A DNA stretch of 51,321 nt from Vermamoeba vermiformis. Taxonomy: Eukaryota. Below, piece after piece: positions 6,283 to 30,673 of this stretch. How positions within the stretch are numbered: the first letter of the stretch is position 1; each line of letters begins with the position of its first letter. Below the pieces are notes generated by a model. The model had not been told where the DNA came from, did no database searches, and saw only the letters and a list, made by a program, of their open reading frames with translations. The stretch covers positions 1 to 51,321 of the forward strand of contig JBEWZL010000054.1 in the NCBI GenBank assembly GCA_045837725.1. Reading direction: 5' to 3'. Made by a program: the position numbers and the translations under genes.

Positions 6283-8663
6283 ATGTGGAAGAAACTTACT
6301 ACCATCGCCATCATCTTGGCGTTGGCCTCCCTTGCCATGAGCAAGATGGTCATAAAGGGATCTCCTACTGCCACTAGCAGATTTTGGGTCCCATCCACTG
6401 CACCTCACGCATCTACTCCTATGAAGCTCTTCGTTGCTTTGAAGGAGCGAAACCTTAATGTTTTGGAAGAAAGACTCGCCAAGACTTCTGACCCTAACTC
6501 TCCTGAATACGGCAAGCACTTGTCCTTCGAGGAGGTCGTCCAGATTAGCGGTGCTACGGACGAGCAGATCGAAACTGTAAGTCTTTTATTACGATTCAGT
6601 GCATTGTAGAAATTAATGTATTTATAATGTTGCACTAGGTCACTGCTTGGTTGAAGGCTCACGGCATTGAACACGAAGTCACTCCTTCTCGCAGCTTCAT
6701 TCGCATTAACAGCAATGCTGCCCGTATGGAGAACTTGTTGAACTGCAACTTGAGGTAAGTCCGGTAATAAGATGCAATATCTAGTCTATCAAGAGCGTAT
6801 CTAGGCCGTTCTTGAAATTACACGCTTTTTTAAGTGACCTGCATTTAATTTTCGTGGTACTAATTGGGCTCTTAGATACTACCAAGCTACCCACTCCAAC
6901 AAGAAGATCATTCGTTGCGCTGGTTCTTACTCTGTCCCCGAGGAGATCCACCCTCTTATCGACTTCGTTGGTCCCGTCCACGGTTTCCCTCGTCCTCGCC
7001 GTGCTCGTGCTCCCAAGGTACGGGTCAAACTTTTCTGTCATTTGCAAAACCAAAATCTATTTATTAATCTTTAAATAATAATTTACGGCCAATAATACTT
7101 ACTTCGCACGACTATGATAGGGCCCAATGTTCTTCGACGAAGCCGTCACTCCGGATTTGATCCACAAGATCTACAACGTTACTCTCGGATATCCCAACTT
7201 GAAGGTCAACAACACTCAAGCTGTCTTCGAGGCCGGTGACAACTACATGCCTTCTGACGTTCAACAATTCTTCCAGGTAAGTAATGAAGACTAACTTGTT
7301 GCCGCTGATCAGATCGAGAAAAATTTTATGCTGATTGTCGAAGCTGAAGTTAATGTCGTATTAATTTTGTTTATACAGACCTACGCTCCTGCTTTGCAAG
7401 GTCAAAAGATTGTTAAGCACTTGGGTAACGAGAAGAACGATCCGACCAACCCTGGTGAAGGTGAAGCCATTTTGGACGTTGAATACATCATGTCCATGGG
7501 CAGCTTTGCTCCTACTTATTACTACGCTTATGACGATAGCGATGACGTCATCAAGCTCTTCCTCGAATACGCCCTGGACTTGGCCAATGATCCCAAGCCT
7601 CCATTGATCCACTCCATCTCATACGGTGAATACGGTGGTAACTACCCTATCGAACACGTGCTTCGTGTCAGCAATGAATGGATGAAATTGGGCAGTACGT
7701 TTAACTCTATATATCGTTATGAATGCAGGTGCTAACTTAGCGTCGTGTAGCCCGTGGTGTTTCCATCTTTGTTGCTAGCGGTGACGATGGTGTTGGTTGC
7801 GATGATAACTGCGACTCCTTCGAGGTAAGCTTAGCTCTATTATTAATATGGCAAGGTTAACTAATGCTCGGTAAACTAGTTCCCTTACCCCAGCAGCCCT
7901 TATATCACTCTCGTCGGTGGTACTGATGTCTACAAAGGTAAGTCTCAGTTCATCTCTCATGCAATATCATGGTACTAAGACTCGCTCTATTGTTAGACAG
8001 CAACGGTCGCTACTACGAAACTGCTTGGGACGGTAGCAGCGGTGGTTTCTCTGGCGACTTCCCCGTACCTTCGTGGCAAGCCGCTCAAGTTGCAGCATAC
8101 TTGCAACAACCTGGTCTCCCTACTTCGTACTTCAATGGCTCTGGTCGTGGTCTCCCCGATATTAGCGCCCCTGGTAGGCCACAAAATTCATACCGATCTA
8201 ACGCGATCCGTTGACTTAGTTAAACTTTTGTAGCTGACAACGTCATGATTATTATGGGTGGCTCTCAAACTCCTATTGGCGGTACCTCCTGCGCTGCTCC
8301 TGTCATTGCCGGTTTGTTTTCTTTGATCAACGGAGTCCGCTTAAAGGCCGGCAAGACCCCTGTTGGCTTCATCAACCCCGCCATCTACACTTTGAGCTCT
8401 CAAAACCCTACTGCCTTCTATGACGTTACTCAAGGCTCTAATCCTGATGGTTGCTGCCCTGGTTTCCGTATGTATTTGATTTTAAGCACCCCTCACTAGC
8501 GATCTGAACGTAGCGGATTCAGTTTTTCGTTTGGTTAAAACGTTTGAAATATTCTCTGACCTGTCTATTTTTAACAGCTGCCACCAAGGGTTGGGACGCA
8601 GTTACTGGTCTCGGCACTCCCAACTTCCGTGAGTTGTTGAAATATTTCTCTCAACTCCCTTAA
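6283..8663 (+). CDS. Secreted S53 serine-carboxyl peptidase (sedolisin/tripeptidyl-peptidase I-like), paralog A
   Basis: Signal peptide; prodomain SDPNSPEYGKHLS; catalytic EAILDVEY, SGDDG, GGTSCAAP; C-terminal GWDAVTGLGTPNF. Multiple introns. Confidence 0.95.
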
Positions 8664-12748: not shown

Positions 12749-12903
12749 TTCGGATTTCAACCTGTAAAATCTTGAAAAATTATCCTCGCATCTTGTGGGC
12801 TGTTTGCCTGGGTGGCGGCTATCCAATGTTAAATATCCAACGCAATTTTATGTAGCATGATGACACGCGTTGAAATTCGGCATTCACTTCAAACTTGCGG
12901 ATC

Positions 12904-15080
12904 ATGCAACACAAGAGCTTAGTTTTATTATTTAGTGCACTACTTTGCATTGAAGTAGCAATCTCTGGCACTACACATGTCGCTAGTGCGAAGAAGAGCA
13001 GACAACCGATTTGGATCAAGGAATCTGTTGCAGTTCTGTCAGACACAACCAATATAATTATTGCGCTCAAGCAGAGAAATTTAGATGTATTGGAAAAGAC
13101 GTTTTGGAGCGTGTCAGATCCGTTTTCAAAAGAGTATCAAAATTATTTATCGTTAGAAAAAATTACAGAATTAATTGCTCCTACTGAGGAGACTATTCGT
13201 CGAGTAATTAATTGGATTTCGATGCATATTGATCAAGTAAGTATTGTAGATTATTTATTTAATTATTTTTATTTTTGACGCTCGATCTCGTTTGACACGA
13301 TATTTTTTTGATAGGAAACGTCAATCAAAGTAACTAAGAGCAAAGATTTCATTGAAATTAAGAATGTTTCAGTGAAAGTAATCAATCGGATCTTGAACAC
13401 TCAACTGCACTATTACAGTCACGCTGAAATTAAGAGTGCTCGTGTTATAAGAGCCGAACAATATACAATTCCAGCGCCTATTGATCGACATGTTGATTTT
13501 ATTAGCGGCCTTATTGATTTCCCCTTAAAGAAATCTCAGTTCAAAGCTTTCGCGGATCAAGGTACGATCTGCGCTCAAATTTCCTTATATAGTAACATTA
13601 CTGTCTAGGTATTACTGTTACGCCCTCAACGATTTGGAATAGATATTCTTACAGTGGAATGTATGGCGGAAAGTCTTCATCAAACGCACAAGCTGTCACT
13701 GAATTTGGCGGTGGATCTTTCGGCCAATACTACAGTCCATCAGATCTGACCATTTTTCAGCAAAAATTCAACGTAATGGTCAATAACGTATCCAAATTAT
13801 ACGGAAAGAATGATCCTACTCAGCCAGCTGGCGAAGTACGAAAATGACATTTTGACACTTTGACACTTTACTCATTCTTTTGTTTGACAGGCCACGCTTG
13901 ACATCCAGTACATCATGTCATCAGCTCAAAATGTCTCCACGTGGTTCTGGGAAGAGTTCGGAACTGAAGTCGAGTGGATGACTCACAGTAAGTTCAGCAT
14001 CCGGAAGCTAATCACGTGTTAACATGGTACTATTTTTAGTCTCGGATACTCCCGATGCGCCTTGGGTTCATTCGGTCAGCTACAGTTTTGGCAATGAGAT
14101 CGACACGCCTGAGTCCTATTGGAATCGATTGAACGCTGAGTTTATTAAAGCTGGTGTTCGTGGAATTTCGCTCTTATTTGGCAGTGGCGACAGTGGAACA
14201 GGTAATGACCGGTAGATTGAATGAGAGGGCTCAACCGCATTCATGTAACAATCATTATAGGATTCCTTCAGACATATGTAGTGCTCTCTAAAGTGCTCCG
14301 TTAGTGCTTATTGTTAATATTGTTTATTAATAGGCAGTACCGGTTGGATTTTCTGCGATTCGTTCAACCCAGGATTTCCTGCGACAAGTCCGTACACGAC
14401 CGCTGTTGGCGCGACTTACTTAGAAGGTACAAACAATGTAGTATTAATTGTTTAATGACATTTTGTTAGCTGATTTAAAGACGGAGAACGCTGCAAGTTT
14501 CAGCGGCGGTGGATTTAGCACTTTCTTGCCGAGACCAAGTTATCAACAGAAAGCCGTCAATAGATACTTGACGTCGTTCAAGAGCCAGTTACCGTCATCT
14601 TCATATTATAACTCGTCGAATAGAGCATTTCCCGATGTAGCGTAAGTGGATTCGATTCCTAAATTTTAGATCCTGACATTTAGTTCAGTGTTTTGGGCAC
14701 AAACTATCAAATCGTCGTTACTGGTGGTGTATTCGGTGCTAGTGGCACTAGCGCATCAACTCCTACATTCGCTGGCATGATTGCTCTCATTAATGACGTA
14801 CTGTTGTCAAAGCCGAACGGCAAGCCACTTGGATTTTTGAATCCTTTATTATACAAGATTGCGGAGCTACACCCCGATGCATTCTTTGATATTACTAAAG
14901 GAAGTAACCCCGCCTCACCGTGCAGCGGTAAGTCCTAAAATAGAATTTTTCTGGATTCGTTTTGACATAAAATTTTTAGCTGGTTTTCCTGCAACTCCTG
15001 GCTGGGATGCAATCTCGGGTCTTGGTGCTCCTATAGTACCTAAGCTATTGCAATATATTCAAGAGATTGTCGATAAATAG
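12904..15080 (+). CDS. Secreted S53 peptidase, divergent paralog C (TPP1-like)
   Basis: Signal peptide; [49 protein letters not shown]. Confidence 0.93.
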
Positions 15081-15139: not shown

Positions 15140-17644
15140 TTATTCGCTGTACAACCGAAAATTATTTAATATAGTTTCAAAAGTTTCTATTAGTCGCTTT
15201 TCATGTTCTAATAAGCAAGCTAATGTTATTGTAAACGCGGATGTGTCGCTTACTAGTTGCACGTGCTTATATTTCATTGGCTTTGCTTGCTACGGAAAAA
15301 CAATTATTAATTAATTGCATTCATGAATGATTTAACTAACAACGCATCAATAGAGTAAAAATTATTCAGTAGCGACCACATCCAGCCGATAAACCAAATA
15401 TGACTTACCATATTTATATTCTCCATGACGTTATACGATATTGATTTAGTCTTGTGCCCGTTCAAACTTGAATTGTTAACAGCTAGGTCTTCTAATGTTG
15501 GTATTTCTTTTTGTAACTGGCCTAGCAGCTCATTCATGTAAAGATCGGGATCCAGTTTTCGGTCGTTCTGCTTATACCTGACGTTTAGTAGCACGACTGA
15601 ACCTACCATAATGTAGTGATTAATATCATGTATTATGATTTTAAAGCTGATTATAACGTCCGGATCCAGCTCGGACAATTTTCTTACGAAAAGATGAACC
15701 GAGCGCGTGACTTTCTAAATCAAAAAAATTTAATGCGTGCAAGCGTAAACAACTAACCAAAGCGCAATTTATCGCTGCGGATCATTATTTATGATTACAC
15801 AAGAGATGCGCATCATCCGCGGATCACGGTTAGTCTTACCTGAATAATCACCAATGCTATGAAGCGAGCCTAGCACCTCTTTTGGCTCAGACCAATCGGC
15901 AGGGATCGACACGCCAAAATTGGAGAATTTAGAATTGTATCGACGCCACTGCGAGGGACTCACTTAAATTTTAAAAATATTAGAGATCCAGTTTACGGTA
16001 AGTTCGCGATAAAATATAAATTTAGGAAGCGTAATGGGATTAAATATGATTTTTGGATGGATTTTGGATGTAATTGGTGGATACTGCCGTCCATCCAAAG
16101 GATGCATATTCGAAGCATGCCATAATTTAAAAATAACCGTTATGAAATTAATACCTAGTGTTTGAATAGAACCTATCCGGAATGGCGCCCCGGATGCAAT
16201 GCTCGGCAATGTGGATGGTTTGCTGGATGTATCGTCGGCTTTTGGGCTGGACCTAAACAGGTAATACTTATAAATTCTATTGTTACGTCGACTTTCAGAA
16301 ACATGAAAATATAGTTTAATCGCTAATTTAATCGTTTGCCTCGTTCTGAGATACAGATAGGCTATAAAAGGCAATATTCAGTTGTACTGCAAGATTAACC
16401 AAAATTAGATCCGAAAATTTCTAAACTTGCCTGAAACTCCGAAAGATATTGCTGTATGATTAACTAATTTCAAGACTTACTTGATCATTGGCGAGTTTAA
16501 GCTCTCGATCGACATAACGTCTTTCTTGCTTTCAGATGAGCTTTTGCTATCAAAATTTAACAGCGTAGATGCGGCTGAATTGACGTCGGATGTAGAGGTA
16601 AGATTATGAATGTTGGATTTATGCTGCCTCGTGCCATTCTTTTCGTCTTCCAAATCGCCAGGTGATTTACCATTTGTTGAATTGCCGTTCGGATTTGTGG
16701 ATGGCTGTTTTGGCGCCGGAAAAGTTTGGTGGAAATGCATATGTTGGCTATAGTCTACATCGTGGCTTATCGGGTGAGGAGGGAAATGAGGTTGATTCTG
16801 ACCATAAAAGGGCATTTGAGGAGCTGATCCGAATTGAGGGAGGATATAAATAGGTTGGTGGGGTCCGCTGACGGTTGGGAAGGTTGGTAAGACGTGGTCT
16901 GGCTTGGAGATATTGCTATTATTTACAAATACGGTGTTTGGGGTGTTCGGAGAAATATATTGGCTCGGAATTGAAACTTGTGATGTGAGGTTCGATCCGC
17001 TGAAAAAAGTATTGTGTACATTTGGCGCCATCGGCGGTTGGTTTAATGACATATTATAAGCTCTAGGGACTTCAGTAGACCTATAATTGAGAAAAACGGC
17101 TCGTTAATATGATTTGTGTTTTTCTAAATTTAGACAATAGGGGCACTTTCGATGCTTGCAATGAAAAATAAGATGATGTATCGTTTCTTTAAGAATCAAA
17201 ATATTAATTATCATCGGACAAAATCAGATCGGATCCTGGCGTCAAGGTTTTGATTCGAATTTCATAAATTTACGTGCCAATATTGCCAAATGCTTTTTTC
17301 ATCCGATTTTTTGAAATAATTCCTCTAACTATGAGCAAATTGATTTCAAATTGCGTCAATTTATCAATACGAGCAACTTACTGCTGAACGTTTTTCCAAA
17401 CCTCGCCGTCTGTGTTGTAACGAAATCCAGCGTCGTGCAAAACCATCAATATAACATTTTTAATTGCGCTCTTATTGTCCAGACCATAGTAATTGCGTAA
17501 ATTAGTGAGGATCTTGTGCAGATGCCGATCGATTCTAATTCTAACATCGTTATTCGGATCTACGTTCTTCTTTTGCTTTTTCAGATCGTGTCCTATATCT
17601 CCATCAGGGTCATCAGGTTCTTTCCTCTTTTGTGTTACTGACAT
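15140..17644 (-). CDS. ~484 aa protein: NLS + ribbon-helix-helix-like N-terminus, P/Q/N-rich middle, PsbP/Mog1/DcrB-like C-terminal domain
   Basis: Exons 17644-17382, 17080-16481, 16252-16155, 15962-15840, 15714-15688, 15602-15409 and 15289-15140 join in phase with GT-AG sites (1455 nt). Domain calls are by pattern only. Confidence 0.72.
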
Positions 17645-18107
17645 TGGTGTTCCTAAAGCATGTAATTGGATCCGTCGGAGGTGTGCTGATTCATTCAGTG
17701 ACACAAATATTCGATAACTGCACAGAAAAACTTAAAAAAAATCGTGTTTTCTCCCGCGGGACCAGTTTTTGGCCATTCCTTTTGTGTCGGCAACGCTTTC
17801 AAGTATTGTTCATAAAACGATTCAAATACCCGCCAGAAGTGGTCATAACTCTTCCTCTGACAATATGTTACGATAAATGTATTCACATTATTATATTAAT
17901 AGATGGAAATGCCAACGAAGCACGCGCCCAAAACAAATCATGATTTTTCATTGGATGAAATTCGGAAATTTTGCCTCGTGCGTGCCGCGTGCCCAATCTC
18001 ACTAAAATATCAAATCCACGAGCACGAGCATCACTTTATTCCGCAAAATAGATATTAAGCATCAACATCCATAGTTTCCTTTATTGTAACGAGCATCAGA
18101 TCTAGCG

Positions 18108-23485: not shown

Positions 23486-26400
23486 ATGCGCACCCTCCTA
23501 TTTACAGTGCTGGTTGCCGCAACTATTGCAGCCGTTTTAGCGAGTTGCACAAGCTCAAGTAAGTAATTACCTCCGCACGTAGTGTTTGCTAACACTTTGC
23601 TCGCTAGACAAGCCCACGGGTTCACCCAATCCGATCTTGAAAGATGTGACCGTGTCAAGCGGCGTGATTAGTGACGCCAAAACTTTATTCCCTGAAGGTA
23701 GCACTCCTCACCCTAGCGTTGCTTCTTCAGACGACATTTTATTCAGATTTAATACAGTAAGTTAACTAATCCGTTGCGTTCGGAAAAAGTTGTCCGGTTC
23801 AGAAATTTTTGTTCTTATCAAACTAACTTTCCTATTCTAATAGAGCACAAACTTGACCTTCACTTTTGTATGGGAAGGAGCTGGCTACAGAAATCAATTC
23901 GGATACTTTTTGCATAATCCCGCGAGCACTTCTGCGCCCAGTTTAGTCACTATTTTCCCCGACTGCACATGGACTAGCGAAGGTGGTTGCATGTACACTG
24001 GATCTAGTGTCCAGATTGGTCCGATTCCTTCCGGCTCTACTGTCGGTTTTTGGATTCGCGCTGACGGTTACGGCAACCCCAATAATCCCGTCTACTACTC
24101 TATCCACAATACTAGCTCGCCAGTGAAGAATCCTGACGGCTATCGTCACGCTGCTTGGGTCAAAACTAACAATGTGACATTGATCGGATTTGAAGATCTT
24201 AACAACCTTGGAGACAAGGACTACAACGACGGTAAGTACTTGTAAAACTCAATTTTGCAATCACGACGAATTTACTATGAAATTGAAGTTTGAAATCAAG
24301 GTTATTGCCTTTTTTAGTCCGAATTTACGTTGCAACTATTTTTTATTTGATTCGTCACGTTCATCTCCGATCGAGATACTGATTTGATTTCTTTCTAGTT
24401 ATGTTCTTCGTTACTGCTACTGCTCAATTGAGCAACGATGGTGATATTCCTACCTTCGAAAACGGAACTTTGCAAGTTTGCACGGACGCCGAAATTACAA
24501 CTTACACTGAGTATCAATGCACTCAATATGCTTCATTGACTGCTCGCAACCCCTCCAGTTGCATCGGTTACCTTCGTGTGCCTGCTGGCTGGACCTTGGC
24601 TCCCAACACTCAAGACACTAAGGACGCCATCGTCGCCGCATCTGCTGCCGGTGTCAACTTTGGATCTCAATGCGTAGTCTTGGCTGGTGGTGTTGGTATT
24701 GATGTTACTACTGGTGGTAGCTGCGGCTCTGGTCTCCTTAAGACCTTCAAGTCCGACAGCAGCTGCTACAATGTCGACTGCCAATATACTATGATCATCA
24801 AGGGTCAAACCTTGAGCCGTAAGTCTTTCATGAACATGAGTTAGGTCACGTGCAGTAACTAACAGCCTCTTGCTATAGAATGCTCTTCTTCTCAAGACTT
24901 GACTTGCAACCCTGCTACCAACGCTAAGTTGTTGTCTCGTTTCCCGACCCTTCAAGTCGATATCCCTGTTTTCCCTACTCAATACACCATCTACTTGAGC
25001 AACTTGGTCGGCACTGCCGCTACTATTGACTTGCCCGTCACTCTCAAGGTTGCTAGCTCACCTAAGGTCGACGTGATGGTTTTGGTTGACCTCAACGGTT
25101 TGTCCTCTGCCACCCTTTCGACTTTGCGCACCCAAGTTTCGACTTTGTTCAGCAGCTTGAACACTAAGAACTACAACCCCTTGATGGGTATTGCCACTGT
25201 CGATGCCAACGGTGCCGTCAACGTGCTTACTACTTTGACTTCCTCGACTGACAGTGTCACCAACGCTCTTAACAACATCGCTACTAGCAGCGCTACTGCC
25301 ACGAACACTCCCATCACCACTGCGCTGTTGACCAAGTTCTACAACAACACTGCTCTCGGCTGGAGAAGAACTGGTACCTACAACTCTGTCTTGGTCATCA
25401 CTGCGAAGGCTTCGACCACCTCTGTCACTAACAGCGTGTTGGCTGCCTCATCCAAGATCAACAGAGTCTTCCCTGTCTTCTTGTCTACTTCGACTCCTGC
25501 TAGCTCTTACACCACTTTGGTGGGCTCTCAGCCTTTCGCTTACTCTGATACCATTGCTGATGCTTATGGTAACATCGCTACCAAGGCTGGCACTATCATC
25601 GACACTTTCGTCAAGACTGTTGAGTTCGACACTGCCGCTGACTTGTCTCCCAACGGCTTCGTCTCTGCTCTCCCTGCTACTGCCACTGGCGTTGCTTTCA
25701 ACCAAACTTTGAGCAGAACCGTCACCTTGACTTACCCTGCCGGTACTGTCAGTGTTTCTCCCGTGCCTTTCGAAGTCGACGTCACTGTCTGGGGTTTCGG
25801 AACTTTGGCTGTCATGGTCAACGTCAACAGAGCTCCTACCGTTGTCAGCAAGCCCAACATCGTGTTGAACGAAGACACTTCTGCTAGCTTTGAAGTCGCT
25901 GGACAAGACGCTGATGGCAACATCTTGAACGTTGTTTACTTGAGCGTTTCTCCTGCCTCCGAGCAATCTGGTTTCAAGACCTCCTCTGGCAACGCTCTCG
26001 TCTTCAATAGTGCTTCGTACACTGACTTCACTGGTCAATACGTGCCTTCATCTAACTATGTTGGTACCACGACTTTGAACTTCCTCGTTCGTGACGGTTG
26101 CGTCAACAGCACTATGGGTTCTTTGGTCTTCCAAGTCAACAACGTCAATGACGCCCCTGTTGCTCGCCCGATCACTCGTACCATCAACGAAGACACTGAA
26201 GCTATCATCTTCTTCAACAGCACCTTCGTTTCTGACATTGATAATGACTGGAGCACTTTGACCGTCTTCGTGTCAAGCTTCCCTTCAAGCGATCCTACTC
26301 GCCTTGCTGTGGCTAGCAATGCCGCTGGTACTGCTTGGAACGCTTTGACTTCGAGCGCTACCGCCCCTGTCACTGTTACCAACAAGTACTTGCGTTACAC

Positions 26401-29400
26401 TCCTGTTGCCAACTGGAACGGCGTTGTCACTTTCAACTACTACGTGCAAGATCCTAGCTCTGCTACTTCATCCAGCACTATCACCATTACTGTCCTTCCT
26501 GTGAACGATGCTCCTACTTCTCAAGACATCACTCTTCGCACCAACGAAGACACTCCCATCACCTTCACGCCTACCGCTACTGATATTGATGGTGATACTA
26601 TCACATTCGAGATCGTCTCTTTGCCCAACACTGGCACTGTTGTTCGTACCACTGACAACAGCAACATCGTTGTTGGCAAGTTCACTTCCAACCCCAGCAC
26701 TTGGACCATGAAGTACACTCCTCCTCTTAACCAGTACAACGCCACTTCTCCCTTGACTACCTTCCAGTTCAGAGTGAGCGATCCCAACGGCGGAGTCTCT
26801 GCGAACTACACTGTCTCAATCTACGTTGATCCTGTCAATGACGCTCCTACCGCTGACAACTTCGGCGTAACCACCAACGAAGACACCAATGTGGTCATTG
26901 ACTTCTCCAACTACATTCGTGACGTTGATGATACTCTTGCCAACCTCAAGGTCTACATCAAGAGCCCTCCTTTGACGTCTTTGGGCCGTCTTGTTGACTC
27001 TTCTGCCATCACTTCCAGCAACGTTTTGTTGACTGGCAAGACCGCGACCTTCCAACCCTCGAAGGATCAAAACGGCTACGTCACTTTCACTTACTACGTC
27101 AAGGACCCCTCTGGTTTGATCTCTAACGATGCCACAGTCAACGTTACTGTCAACCCCGTCAACGATCCTCCTGTCTTGACCGCTCCCACTACCTCCTTCG
27201 TCTCCAAGGTCTACGGCAGTGTCTCTGTCACTTTGTCCATGACTGACCCTGATCTTGGCTCAAGCGAGACTCTTACTTTGAAAGTCCTCGCCAACAACTT
27301 GGGTTCTTTGATCCCTAACTTGAACGTCAGCACTGGTTACAGCGCTAACATCGGTACTTTTGTTGCTCCAAGCACTACTCCCAATCTTGCTACCGCATGG
27401 CCCAACAGCAACGACGGTTCTGCCCTTGTAACCGTTCTTACTTGGAACCCTTCAAATGTTGTTTCTCCTGGTACCACCGGAAATTTCACAGTTCAAGCTG
27501 TTGATGCTACTGGAGCCACTTCCAACAGCATCGTTATCACTTTGTCGATTGCTGACAACACCCCTCCCACCGTCGCTACTCCAACCACTCGAGTTATTGC
27601 TGAAGATAGCAGCGCCACTGGTATTCTCTTGTTCGGCACTGATGTCGACGCTGCTGATGTTGCCAATTTGACTTTGACCATCTCTTCCTTGCCTACCAAC
27701 GGTCAATTGAAGCACAACGGTGTTGCCATTACCGCCACTGGTTTTAAGCTCACTGTTTCTGGTAACTCCACTGGTACTTCTGCTTGGGTTGACTACGTGC
27801 CCAACGCCAACTACAACGGTCAAGACAGCTACAAGTTCTTCGCCACTGATAGGGCCGGCGCTTCCTCCCTTGAAGCCACTGGCTTGATCACCATTACCGC
27901 TGTCAACGACGCTCCTGTTGGTGGCAACGTTACTGTTCGTGGCCCTGAAGACACCGTTATTTCCATCACTACCATTGACGCCAGTGACGTCGACGGTGAC
28001 GCTTTGACTTTGGAAATCCTTTCTTTGCCCAATTCATTGACCTTCCAAACCAATGCCGGTGCTACAGTCACTACTTCAACCAAGCTCACTCAAGCCGACA
28101 CTTGGGTCTTGAAGTACCAAGCCCCCGCTAACGCTCACAGCGTTCCTACTGGTTCAGTCTACACCTCGTTCACTTACAGATTCAACGACGGCAACGGTGG
28201 TCTTTCTTCGACGTACTACGCGTTCATCATTGTCGATCCTGTCAATGATCCTCCTGTCGCTCAAGACTTCACCATCACCACTCTTGAAGACACTTCGATC
28301 GTGTTCAACTTCACTTCTTTCATTTCTGACGTTGACGGCGACACTCCTCTGACCATCACCGTTCAATCTTTGCCCGGTCTTGGTTTGCTCTACTCTGGCA
28401 CTGACGGCGTTACTTTCACTACCGCTGTCACGACCACTCCCGCCTCAGCTCCTACTCAGAAGCTCAAGTTCACTCCTTCGTTGAACGCCAACGGTCAAAC
28501 TACTTTCACTTACGTCGTGTCTGATCCTTCTGGCGCCACTGACTCCGGTGTAGTGACCATCAATGTGACACCTGTCAACGATCCTCCTGTCTCTCAAAGC
28601 GTTGTTCTTCGCACTCTTGAAGACACCACGTTGAACTTCACTTTGTCTGGTTCTGACGTTGAAGGCGACTCCGTCTCCATTATTCTCTTGTCTCTTCCTT
28701 CCACTGGTTCATTGCTCAGTGCTTCTGACAGCTCGTACATTTCTGAACTTCCCTTCTCCTTGGGCAACCCTGCTTCGTACAGCTACATTCCTCCTCAGAA
28801 CTACTACACTGCACCCAATGCTCCCTTGGTCTTCTCTTTCTACGCTTATGACGGCCAAGCCCGCAGTGTTGTCAACTACACTGTCAGCATCTACGTCGAC
28901 TCTGTGAATGACGCTCCTACCTCACAAGACGTGTTTGCTCGCACTAAGGAAGACACTCCTATAAGCTTCAACTTGCCCGCTGTTGACGCTGAAGACGACG
29001 CCACTTTGCTCATCGCAATCGTTACCTCTGTCAACGACGGTGCTAACACTGGTACCTTCTGGACCTCTTCTGCCAAGACCCAACAAATCTCTACTGGTAC
29101 TAAGTTGACTAACCCCAGAACTGTCTACTTCGTTCCCGCTCCGAACGCTTTCAGCAACCCCACCACTGCTCCTCTTGCCTCCTTGAAGTTCCAAGTTCAA
29201 GATACTGAAGGTTTGGTCAGTGTTGCTGAATACAACGCCTTTGTCTACGTGACACCTGTCAACGATCCTCCTGTCTACAACGGCGCTAGCGTTCTTACCA
29301 TCGACGAAGACACTACCATTGAAGTCGCCCTCATGAACCAAGTCACTGATGTTGATAACACCGTCAGCAGCGAGATGCCCGTCACGGTCACTGCCATCAC

Positions 29401-30673
29401 TGGTCACGGTGTGTTCTCTGAATGCGCTGAAGACGGCTCCTCTTGCGAGCGAACTACCATTTTGGTTGGATCCACTTTGAAGAACGCTGAATGGCGCTTC
29501 ACTTTTGCTCCTTTGAAGGACGAGAACGGTGACAACTACGCCTCGATCACCTTCGTGATTAACGATGGCACTGATAACTCTTTGCCTTACACCATCACCA
29601 TCAACGTCAGACCTGTCAACGATCCTCCTGTCATCAACCCGTTCTTCAATGTGCTCCCTGGTCGTGTTGACATGGACGAAGACACCGAGTTGGAACTCTC
29701 TTGGAACGTCACTGATATTGACAGTCCTGCCACTACTCTCCGCACCTTCGTCACTTCCAAGTTGCCCGTTAACGGCAGAATGTTCGCTTGCAATGTTCAA
29801 GAAGACGGTTCTTGCGCTCGTGGCGCTGAACTCAGTTTCCCTGCTGAAGTTACTGCCACTAACTCCGCCACTGCCACTTGGAGACTCATCTTCGTTCCTG
29901 ACGCCAACGCCTTCGACGCCAAGAACTTCGCTACTTTCAATCTTGTCGCTGAAGACGACTACGAAGCTCGCTCCGTCTCTGTCAAGTCCATCATTCGTGT
30001 CTTGCCCATCAACGACGCTCCTACTATCACCGCCCAAGACACTTACCAAGTCACTCGCGATGCTGATGGCACTCGATTCCTCCTTGCTGACGTCTCTGTG
30101 AACGACATTGACGCCTTCAGAAAGAAGATTGTCTTCGGTGTCAGATTAGTCGACGAGAACTCTGGCAGATTGGAAGCTGAAGGAAGCAATGCCGATTTGG
30201 CTTTCACTGGCGCTAAGGCTCCTTGCAAACTCAACGCTGCCAAGACTGAAGTTGTCTGCACTGATCCTCAAGCTGACATCAACGTCTGGATCTCGTCTGC
30301 TATTGTCTTCTATCCTGCCAACACTACTGGTACTTTCAACTTGTTCTTGTACGTGGATGACTTGGGCAACACCGACAAGCTTCAACGACCTTTGACTGCC
30401 AACAAGACCATCTCCGTGCTCGTCAACGAAGACACCGGTCTCTTGCCCTACACTCCTACCGATAACACTGGTATTGCCGTTGGTTTGAGCGTTGGTGGTG
30501 CCGCTGCCATTGCCGGCATTGCAGTTTTGATTGCCAAGTTGCGCAAGAAGAACGAGATTATCGACAACTATTTCGATAACTTGACTGACACCATTCAAAC
30601 TGGTGCTAACAACCCGATGTACCAAGCTGCCTTCTCTGATGCTGCTAACCCGCTCTACAGAGCCAGAAACTAA
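23486..30673 (+). CDS. Sib-like (similar to integrin beta) type I membrane adhesin: signal peptide, DUF4114-like, vWA-like, ~12 bacterial-type Ig/cadherin-like repeats, TM, two NPxY
   Basis: MRTLLFTVLVAATIAAVLA signal; EGAGYRNQFGYF and IGFEDL..GDKDYND; DVMVLVDL; repeated VND[AP]P..EDT; TM GIAVGLSVGGAAAIAGIAVLI; tail NPMY and NPLY. The last exon is 24879-30673. Confidence 0.9.

Follow-up and report, generated by a model that had tools for sequence, protein, structure and literature searches.

Work on ribbon-helix-helix (RHH) regulators concerns bacteria and archaea and the viruses that infect them. Among them, the NikR type comprises bacterial and archaeal regulators that carry a C-terminal sensor domain. 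The PsbP_2 family (PF18933) is bacterial as well, and the eukaryotic Ran-binding protein Mog1 belongs to the same clan and broad fold class. The gene described here encodes a protein that has features of both NikR-type regulators and PsbP_2. It lies on the minus strand of a 51,321-nucleotide (nt) stretch of DNA, contig JBEWZL010000054.1 (hereafter the window), where its coding sequence spans exactly positions 15140..17644. The locus is one real, expressed gene of six exons whose RNA is spliced, and the product is a protein of 475 amino acids (aa). A small N-terminal domain, predicted to form an RHH-like dimer, is joined in this protein by a long linker to a C-terminal domain of PsbP_2 type. 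A preliminary description, made from the letters of the window, had already proposed such a fusion.

The window protein shares with NikR-type regulators an N-terminal order of strand, helix and helix, an alternation of hydrophobic and polar residues along the strand and a glycine-containing loop between the helices. An intertwined strand-ribbon dimer is also common to both, although in the window protein it is only predicted. A separate C-terminal domain, probably alpha/beta in the window protein, which could sense a ligand or a partner, is a further likeness. However, no sequence relationship between the two is detectable. The window protein has a conserved hairpin, a leader that resembles a nuclear localization signal (NLS), a disordered linker of 230 residues and introns, in all of which it differs from the NikR type. 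Moreover, the C-terminal domain of NikR is ACT-like and binds metal, whereas that of the window protein is PsbP_2-like. The latter aligns colinearly, over the whole domain, with a profile of bacterial PF18933 domains and has the motifs at the start and in the terminal helix in common with the family. Unlike its bacterial counterparts, it scores below the Pfam cut-off, forms the last domain of a eukaryotic protein of nuclear type and is interrupted by two introns. Winged-helix domains, such as cullin WHB, the winged helices of MCM and ORC, BlaI, Fur and E2F/DP, resemble the predicted monomer of the N-terminal domain in another way: a helix-turn-helix is followed by a beta-hairpin wing, and a short strand precedes the helices.

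Distribution and conservation

The protein appears restricted to a narrow eukaryotic lineage, with few close relatives. When 1.84 billion representative proteins were searched with phmmer, only three matched, all of them exon-sized fragments of one more distant relative. They are 61% identical over exon 2, 73% over exon 5 (P0008) and 79% over exon 4 (P0009), the values for P0008 and P0009 being measured against P0001, a 473-aa homologue of the window protein. Word-index searches added one full-length cluster and four further fragments of kin (C-terminal query against shorter proteins), and a metagenome scan found one locus, the contig L001, in which the more distant relative is represented by exon 1, intron 1 and exon 2. 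No family was found in P0001 by an NCBIfam scan, and phmmer of P0001 against the Protein Data Bank (PDB) gave only a chance match (E 0.5). Within the window, tblastn matched only the gene itself.

Conservation is distributed very unevenly along the chain. Between the window protein and P0001, 86 of 88 residues are identical in the N-terminus (97.7%), 181 of 230 in the linker (78.7%) and 138 of 157 in the C-terminus (87.9%). When the window is compared with L001, exon 1 still has 84 of 88 identical residues and exon 2 has 103 of 205 (50%). The codon differences in exon 1 comprise 25 synonymous and four non-synonymous ones. Residues 22–78 are invariant across the three lineages. The basic stretch of residues 6–26, which the preliminary description had quoted as KRK..KKQKK, is indeed present, and it is invariant in the three lineages except at residues 17 and 21. 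Judged from these comparisons, constraint is greatest in the N-terminal module of 88 residues, and the small domain within it is under very strong purifying selection.

The linker is rich in S, P, N, T, Q and H (S 17%, P 13%, N 9%), in agreement with the P/Q/N/H-rich middle noticed earlier. A few islands of the linker are kept in the distant relative (16481–16700, minus strand; residues ~215–288), namely GNSTNGKSP..L.DE, AAST.L..D and KKDVMSIE.L, and they may be short linear motifs. The 5' leader (17645–17715, minus strand) is also well conserved relative to L001:1–74. In one block of it (ATGAATCAGCACACCTC region) all 18 bases agree, which stands out against the 50% identity of the protein encoded by exon 2.

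Fold and predicted dimer of the N-terminal domain

An AlphaFold2 (AF2) model built from a three-row alignment has predicted local distance difference test (pLDDT) values of 74–85 for residues 30–87 and below 50 for residues 1–28. The basic stretch is probably disordered, and its resemblance to a known bipartite motif suggests that residues 6–26 act as an NLS. The modelled domain consists of a strand (33–37), a helix (39–53), a Gly-containing loop, a second helix (58–71) and a hairpin (74–76/81–85). The model thus has the strand-helix-helix order of RHH domains, with a short loop between the helices, and the hairpin of residues 74–85 is an addition to it.

When two copies of residues 26–87 were folded together by ESMFold2, the interface score ipSAE (interaction prediction score from aligned errors) was 0.55, 0.56 and 0.55 in three runs, compared with 0.01 for the best of three controls. 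The dimer models have pLDDT values of 77–78, and at least 98% of their contacts agree between runs. On the benchmark for this mark, 21 of 30 microbial homodimers and none of 23 single chains passed; the figures for eukaryotes were 17 of 29 and none of 30. The residue pairs with the lowest predicted error form an antiparallel ribbon about residue 36 (35–35, 36–36, 35–37, 35–38 and 38–34). They also pack helix 2 against helix 2' (65–65, 68–68 and 72–72) and helix 1 against helix 2' (42–65, 46–65 and 45–69). In the predicted dimer, R35 and R37 of the strand V34–I38 would face outwards from the ribbon in both chains. Helix 2 contains six consecutive hydrophobic residues, V64–L69, a stretch that would fit a buried dimer core. 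These models predict that the N-terminal domain forms an intertwined homodimer with RHH-type geometry, as the preliminary description had expected of this segment.

Several results weigh against an RHH assignment. The dimer is a prediction, and its pass of the mark may reflect memory of solved dimers. A Pfam scan of the exons found neither RHH nor any other N-terminal family at E<=10, the N-terminus matched PDB sequences only by chance (SMC3 head, E ~1), and tblastn of the domain against phages and plasmids gave nothing at E<=10. The profile test covered RHH_1 only, represented by 25 domains from 24 of 61 genomes. In this test, hhalign placed the N-terminal domain in the expected register but with a probability of 2.3% and a score of 13.06, which was equalled by 11 of 300 shuffles. 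Likewise, a hidden Markov model (HMM) of RHH_1 does not raise the domain above 2000 shuffles. The conserved C-terminal hairpin (74–85) is foreign to classical RHH proteins, and the weak structural matches of the AF2 monomer, over residues 34–86, are mostly winged-helix domains. In searches among viral and phage proteins, Foldseek against BFVD gave nothing at E<=0.001, and the one family returned by a PHROGs scan, a 'transcriptional repressor', had an E-value of 0.08. In a language-model atlas the N-terminal part lies at 0.92 to phage and bacterial clusters of 59–66 aa without a Pfam family, which serves as a lead only. The RHH domain proposed from the letters is a candidate only: the strand-helix-helix order in the AF2 model and the predicted dimer, with its beta1-beta1' ribbon and helix 2-helix 2' packing, speak for it, but neither the Pfam scan at E<=10 nor the RHH_1 profile gave a match.

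It is unlikely, yet worth weighing, that the N-terminal domain is instead a winged-helix derivative that has lost its first helix. Strand S1, the two helices and the wing would then follow one another, and helix 2 together with the hairpin wing, in place of a strand ribbon, would bind DNA, RNA or protein; the remainder of the protein would be as described for the preferred explanation. The AF2 monomer has just this order of strand, helix, helix and hairpin. Winged-helix domains are the commonest structural matches of the monomer model, and the top Foldseek rows, all of them weak matches, are ROQ, Z-alpha and WHB domains. An hhalign comparison with 29 domains of the BlaI family aligns the end of helix 2 and the hairpin, although over 16 columns and without significance (score 13.3, P 0.063, probability 0.9%). 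However, the three-helix core (H1-H2-H3) that defines the winged helix-turn-helix is absent from the AF2 model, which predicts two helices and in which residues 1–28 have a pLDDT below 50. The wholly hydrophobic run V64–L69 would be easier to reconcile with the buried core of a dimer than with a recognition helix at the surface, and helix 2 is buried in the predicted dimer. On these models the domain is best described as a strand-helix-helix-hairpin of DNA-binding type that is RHH-like in its predicted dimer and may be of either RHH or winged-helix type.

The C-terminal PsbP_2-like domain

In a Pfam scan of P0001 and of a second homologue, P0002, the sole family at E<=10 was PsbP_2 (PF18933; E 9.7e-4, 19.6 bits). 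The match runs from residue 326 to 469 and covers profile positions 46–183 of 184. For comparison, 20 PsbP_2 domains were collected from 19 of 301 Bacteroidota genomes, where they lie in open frames of 162–490 aa; PsbP_2 was not found in five assorted genomes or in 14 control genomes. An HMM built from these 20 domains gave 20.8 bits to the window protein and 25.6 to P0001, and the best of 2000 composition-matched shuffles reached 9.8. The top-scoring stretch of the gene against this HMM is exon 6.

An alignment of profiles by hhalign, with the C-terminal domains of the window protein, P0001 and P0002 on one side and the 20 bacterial domains on the other, gave a probability of 93.7%, an E-value of 2e-7 and a score of 46.9. 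It is colinear over 135 columns, from 7–153 of 157 to 32–172 of 173. In the controls, 200 column shuffles had a mean score of 11.4 (standard deviation 2.4, maximum 25.8), and the reversed sequence scored 11.3. The motifs common to the window protein and bacterial PsbP_2 are aromatic-x-h-x-h-P-x-x-W at the start and F-x-x-I-h-x-S/N-F in the terminal helix. Language-model neighbours of the protein, at 0.75–0.76, are DcrB, DUF4946 and DUF3805 clusters, which are leads only.

Two points count against this assignment. The Pfam score lies under the gathering cut-off (19.6 versus 27 bits), and AF2, given the last 179 residues of P0001 as a single sequence, produced a model with a mean pLDDT of 35.2. 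Because of this low value, the fold of the domain is derived from homology only. The sequence comparisons nevertheless indicate that the protein ends in a divergent domain of the bacterial PsbP_2 family, of Mog1/PsbP type and ~150 residues long. The PsbP/Mog1/DcrB-like C-terminus named in the preliminary description is thereby upheld, by a sub-threshold Pfam match and by a profile alignment far above 200 shuffles. Its further suggestion of a Mog1-like link to Ran gained no specific support: Pfam gives no Mog1 family at E<=10, and nothing here points to Ran.

Proposed function

The protein as a whole chain is best explained, if still tentatively, as a nuclear DNA-binding dimer with a PsbP_2-like modulating domain. 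According to this explanation, the NLS-like leader would carry the protein into the nucleus, where it would dimerise via the N-terminal domain and bind DNA there. The putative DNA binding is suggested by the type of fold, by the arginines on the strand and by how strongly the module is conserved. The disordered S/P/N-rich linker of ~230 residues would space the two domains or recruit partners. From what is known of its family, the PsbP_2-like domain may bind a ligand or a partner that modulates the activity of the protein. Such a design would follow the same logic as that of bacterial RHH regulators with a sensor domain at the C-terminus. The protein is a candidate transcription factor, with nuclear import, DNA binding and regulation as its putative steps.

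Alternatively, the protein may not bind nucleic acid at all, and the N-terminal domain would serve as a dimerisation or protein-docking module that, together with a PsbP-like binding module of chaperone or adaptor type, as known from several proteins of the Mog1/PsbP clan, forms a nuclear scaffold. This is quite unlikely. The homodimer prediction would suit a scaffold, no DNA-binding family profile was matched, and the long disordered linker contains conserved islands; in addition, the Mog1/PsbP clan is known mostly for protein binding. However, the strand alternates hydrophobic residues with arginine (V-R-I-R-I), and the helix-Gly-loop-helix pattern, like both candidate folds, is typical of DNA binders. 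The contrast between 95–98% identity in the N-terminal module and 50% in the linker speaks for a rigid interface with many contacts, as DNA would provide; a conserved protein partner would account for it as well.

A wider version of the DNA-binding explanation concerns the origin of the protein. It is possible, if rather unlikely in its entirety, that the gene encodes a eukaryotic nuclear regulator built from two prokaryote-type modules. One would be a dimer that binds DNA by an RHH-like strand ribbon and has gained a wing, and the other a sensor or partner domain of PsbP_2 type, joined by the linker, and the whole would have been assembled and given introns in one amoebozoan-like lineage. The protein would then be the first of an undescribed class of DNA-binding proteins in eukaryotes, and its structure would be intermediate between RHH and winged helix. 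If so, a nuclear strand-ribbon fold or a two-helix winged derivative would widen the set of DNA-binding folds of eukaryotes and would be relevant to the suggested relationship between RHH and helix-turn-helix (HTH) domains. With its PsbP_2 domain of bacterial type, the fusion would show concretely how a protist gene can acquire a domain and be assembled at the level of exons.

The claim that this architecture is undescribed withstood the searches, which found no match beyond kin among the 1.84 billion representatives and none in the literature. In the literature searched, including passages of PMC5415576 and PMC13534411, no eukaryotic protein of this two-domain build was found. A search for RHH or CopG proteins in eukaryotes turned up only prokaryotic and viral work. 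In PMC5415576 an InterPro 'Ribbon-helix-helix' entry is listed among fungal transcription-factor families, and RHH annotations in eukaryotes are therefore not unprecedented.

Gene structure and splicing

The gene lies in eukaryotic DNA of ~37–40% G+C. Its six exons were delimited by GT..AG sites that keep the frame and were corrected against P0001. The five introns, of 301, 228, 192, 237 and 119 nt, all have GT..AG ends and keep the frame, and the donor of exon 1 is GTAAGT at 17381. All peptide strings quoted in the preliminary description are present on the minus strand. Its fragments do splice in phase into a single open reading frame (ORF); the length of the product is 475 aa and not ~484 aa, and the model has five junctions in place of the six it had counted. 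A 526-aa model in which the segment KVTRSV...HYIM (15714–15603) was read as coding was ruled out by P0001 and by the contig joints described below, which place this segment in an intron. The features of the gene are listed in Table 1.

Part of the window is present in 20 public sequencing runs from 10 studies, and four of these runs (X1, X4, X21 and X23) were aligned. Four of the joints, 17080/17382, 16252/16481, 15962/16155 and 15602/15840, are present in contigs of X1 as well as of X4, and the fifth, 15289/15409, in X4. All five joints are thus bridged. Every skipped part ends in CT..AC when read on the plus strand and hence in GT..AG on the gene strand, and the intron bins have zero depth in the aligned runs. 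The RNA label of X1 and X4 is a guess only, but contigs without the five introns are what RNA yields. X21 and X23 are raw RNA-seq data of a relative, in which 40 of 58 reads are 90–95% alike and 18 of 58 are 95–99% alike; they contribute one read over the joint 15962/16155, and their exon 2 begins with a diverged sequence. The homologues P0001, P0002 and P0006, each of 473 aa and encoded by contigs of 1.5–3.5 kb, are colinear with the spliced product and cover both domains; the P0001 contig, of 1525 nt, is transcript-sized.

That the fragments belong to two or more separate genes or are chance ORFs, with the fusion an artefact of in-phase reading, is very improbable: the 286-aa protein P0005, which stops after exon 2, speaks for a transcript of a relative in which intron 2 is retained, but this reading is rejected because single contigs of X1 and X4 bridge the junctions and lack the five introns, while transcript-sized contigs encode 473-aa proteins with both domains and every intron has GT..AG ends and keeps the frame.

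P0005 itself comes from a transcript-sized contig (1694 nt) of a close relative that encodes only exons 1 and 2 before a stop. It looks like retention of intron 2 and could be an isoform that has the N-terminal domain and the linker without the PsbP-like domain. In X23, where 32 of 49 reads are 90–95% alike and 17 of 49 are 95–99% alike, the join of exon 1 to exon 2 has eight other letters and is cut 8 nt further in (16990–17080). This suggests a diverged start of exon 2 or an alternative acceptor in the species of that relative.

Table 1. Exons of the gene and sequence features of its N-terminal part (window positions)
Feature	Position	Strand	Description or basis
Exon 1	17644-17382	minus	263 nt; ATG at 17644; residues 1-88, NLS-like stretch and small conserved domain
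Exon 2	17080-16481	minus	600 nt; S/P/N/Q/H-rich linker, fast-evolving, few conserved islands; both flanking joints present in X1 and X4
Exon 3	16252-16155	minus	98 nt; end of linker
Exon 4	15962-15840	minus	123 nt; start of PsbP_2-like domain (WRRYNSKFSNFGVSIPADW...); included in hhalign alignment
Exon 5	15602-15409	minus	194 nt; middle of PsbP_2-like domain
Exon 6	15289-15140	minus	150 nt with stop codon TAA (15142-15140); final strands and terminal helix (...IETFETILNNFRL) of PsbP_2-like domain
Bipartite NLS-like basic stretch, residues 6-26 (KRK, 13 residues, KKQKK)	17567..17629	minus	sequence reading
Small N-terminal domain, residues 33-86	17387..17548	minus	AF2, predicted ESMFold2 homodimer and conservation

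Neighbouring genes

The neighbours of the gene in the window are eukaryotic and include sedolisin-type peptidases with a pro-kumamolisin activation domain, UBX and UNC-93/MFS proteins and ankyrin proteins. They suggest an amoebozoan. One of them, at 12874–15080 on the plus strand, is a gene for a sedolisin (S53) type peptidase with a pro-kumamolisin activation domain. It is convergent with the gene described here, and the stops of the two are ~60 nt apart. An ORF at 7295–7735 on the plus strand is peptidase-like by translation and matched no Pfam family. Farther away, a single intronless frame of 1936 aa occupies 24863–30673 on the plus strand and has ~50% G+C, compared with ~38–40% around it. 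Its domains are a VWA domain, nine bacterial cadherin-like domains, eight Big_9 domains and SibA-like immunoglobulin (Ig) domains, and its C-terminus has a hydrophobic stretch and two NPxY-like motifs. From this composition, the product looks like an adhesion protein of Sib/integrin-beta-like type.

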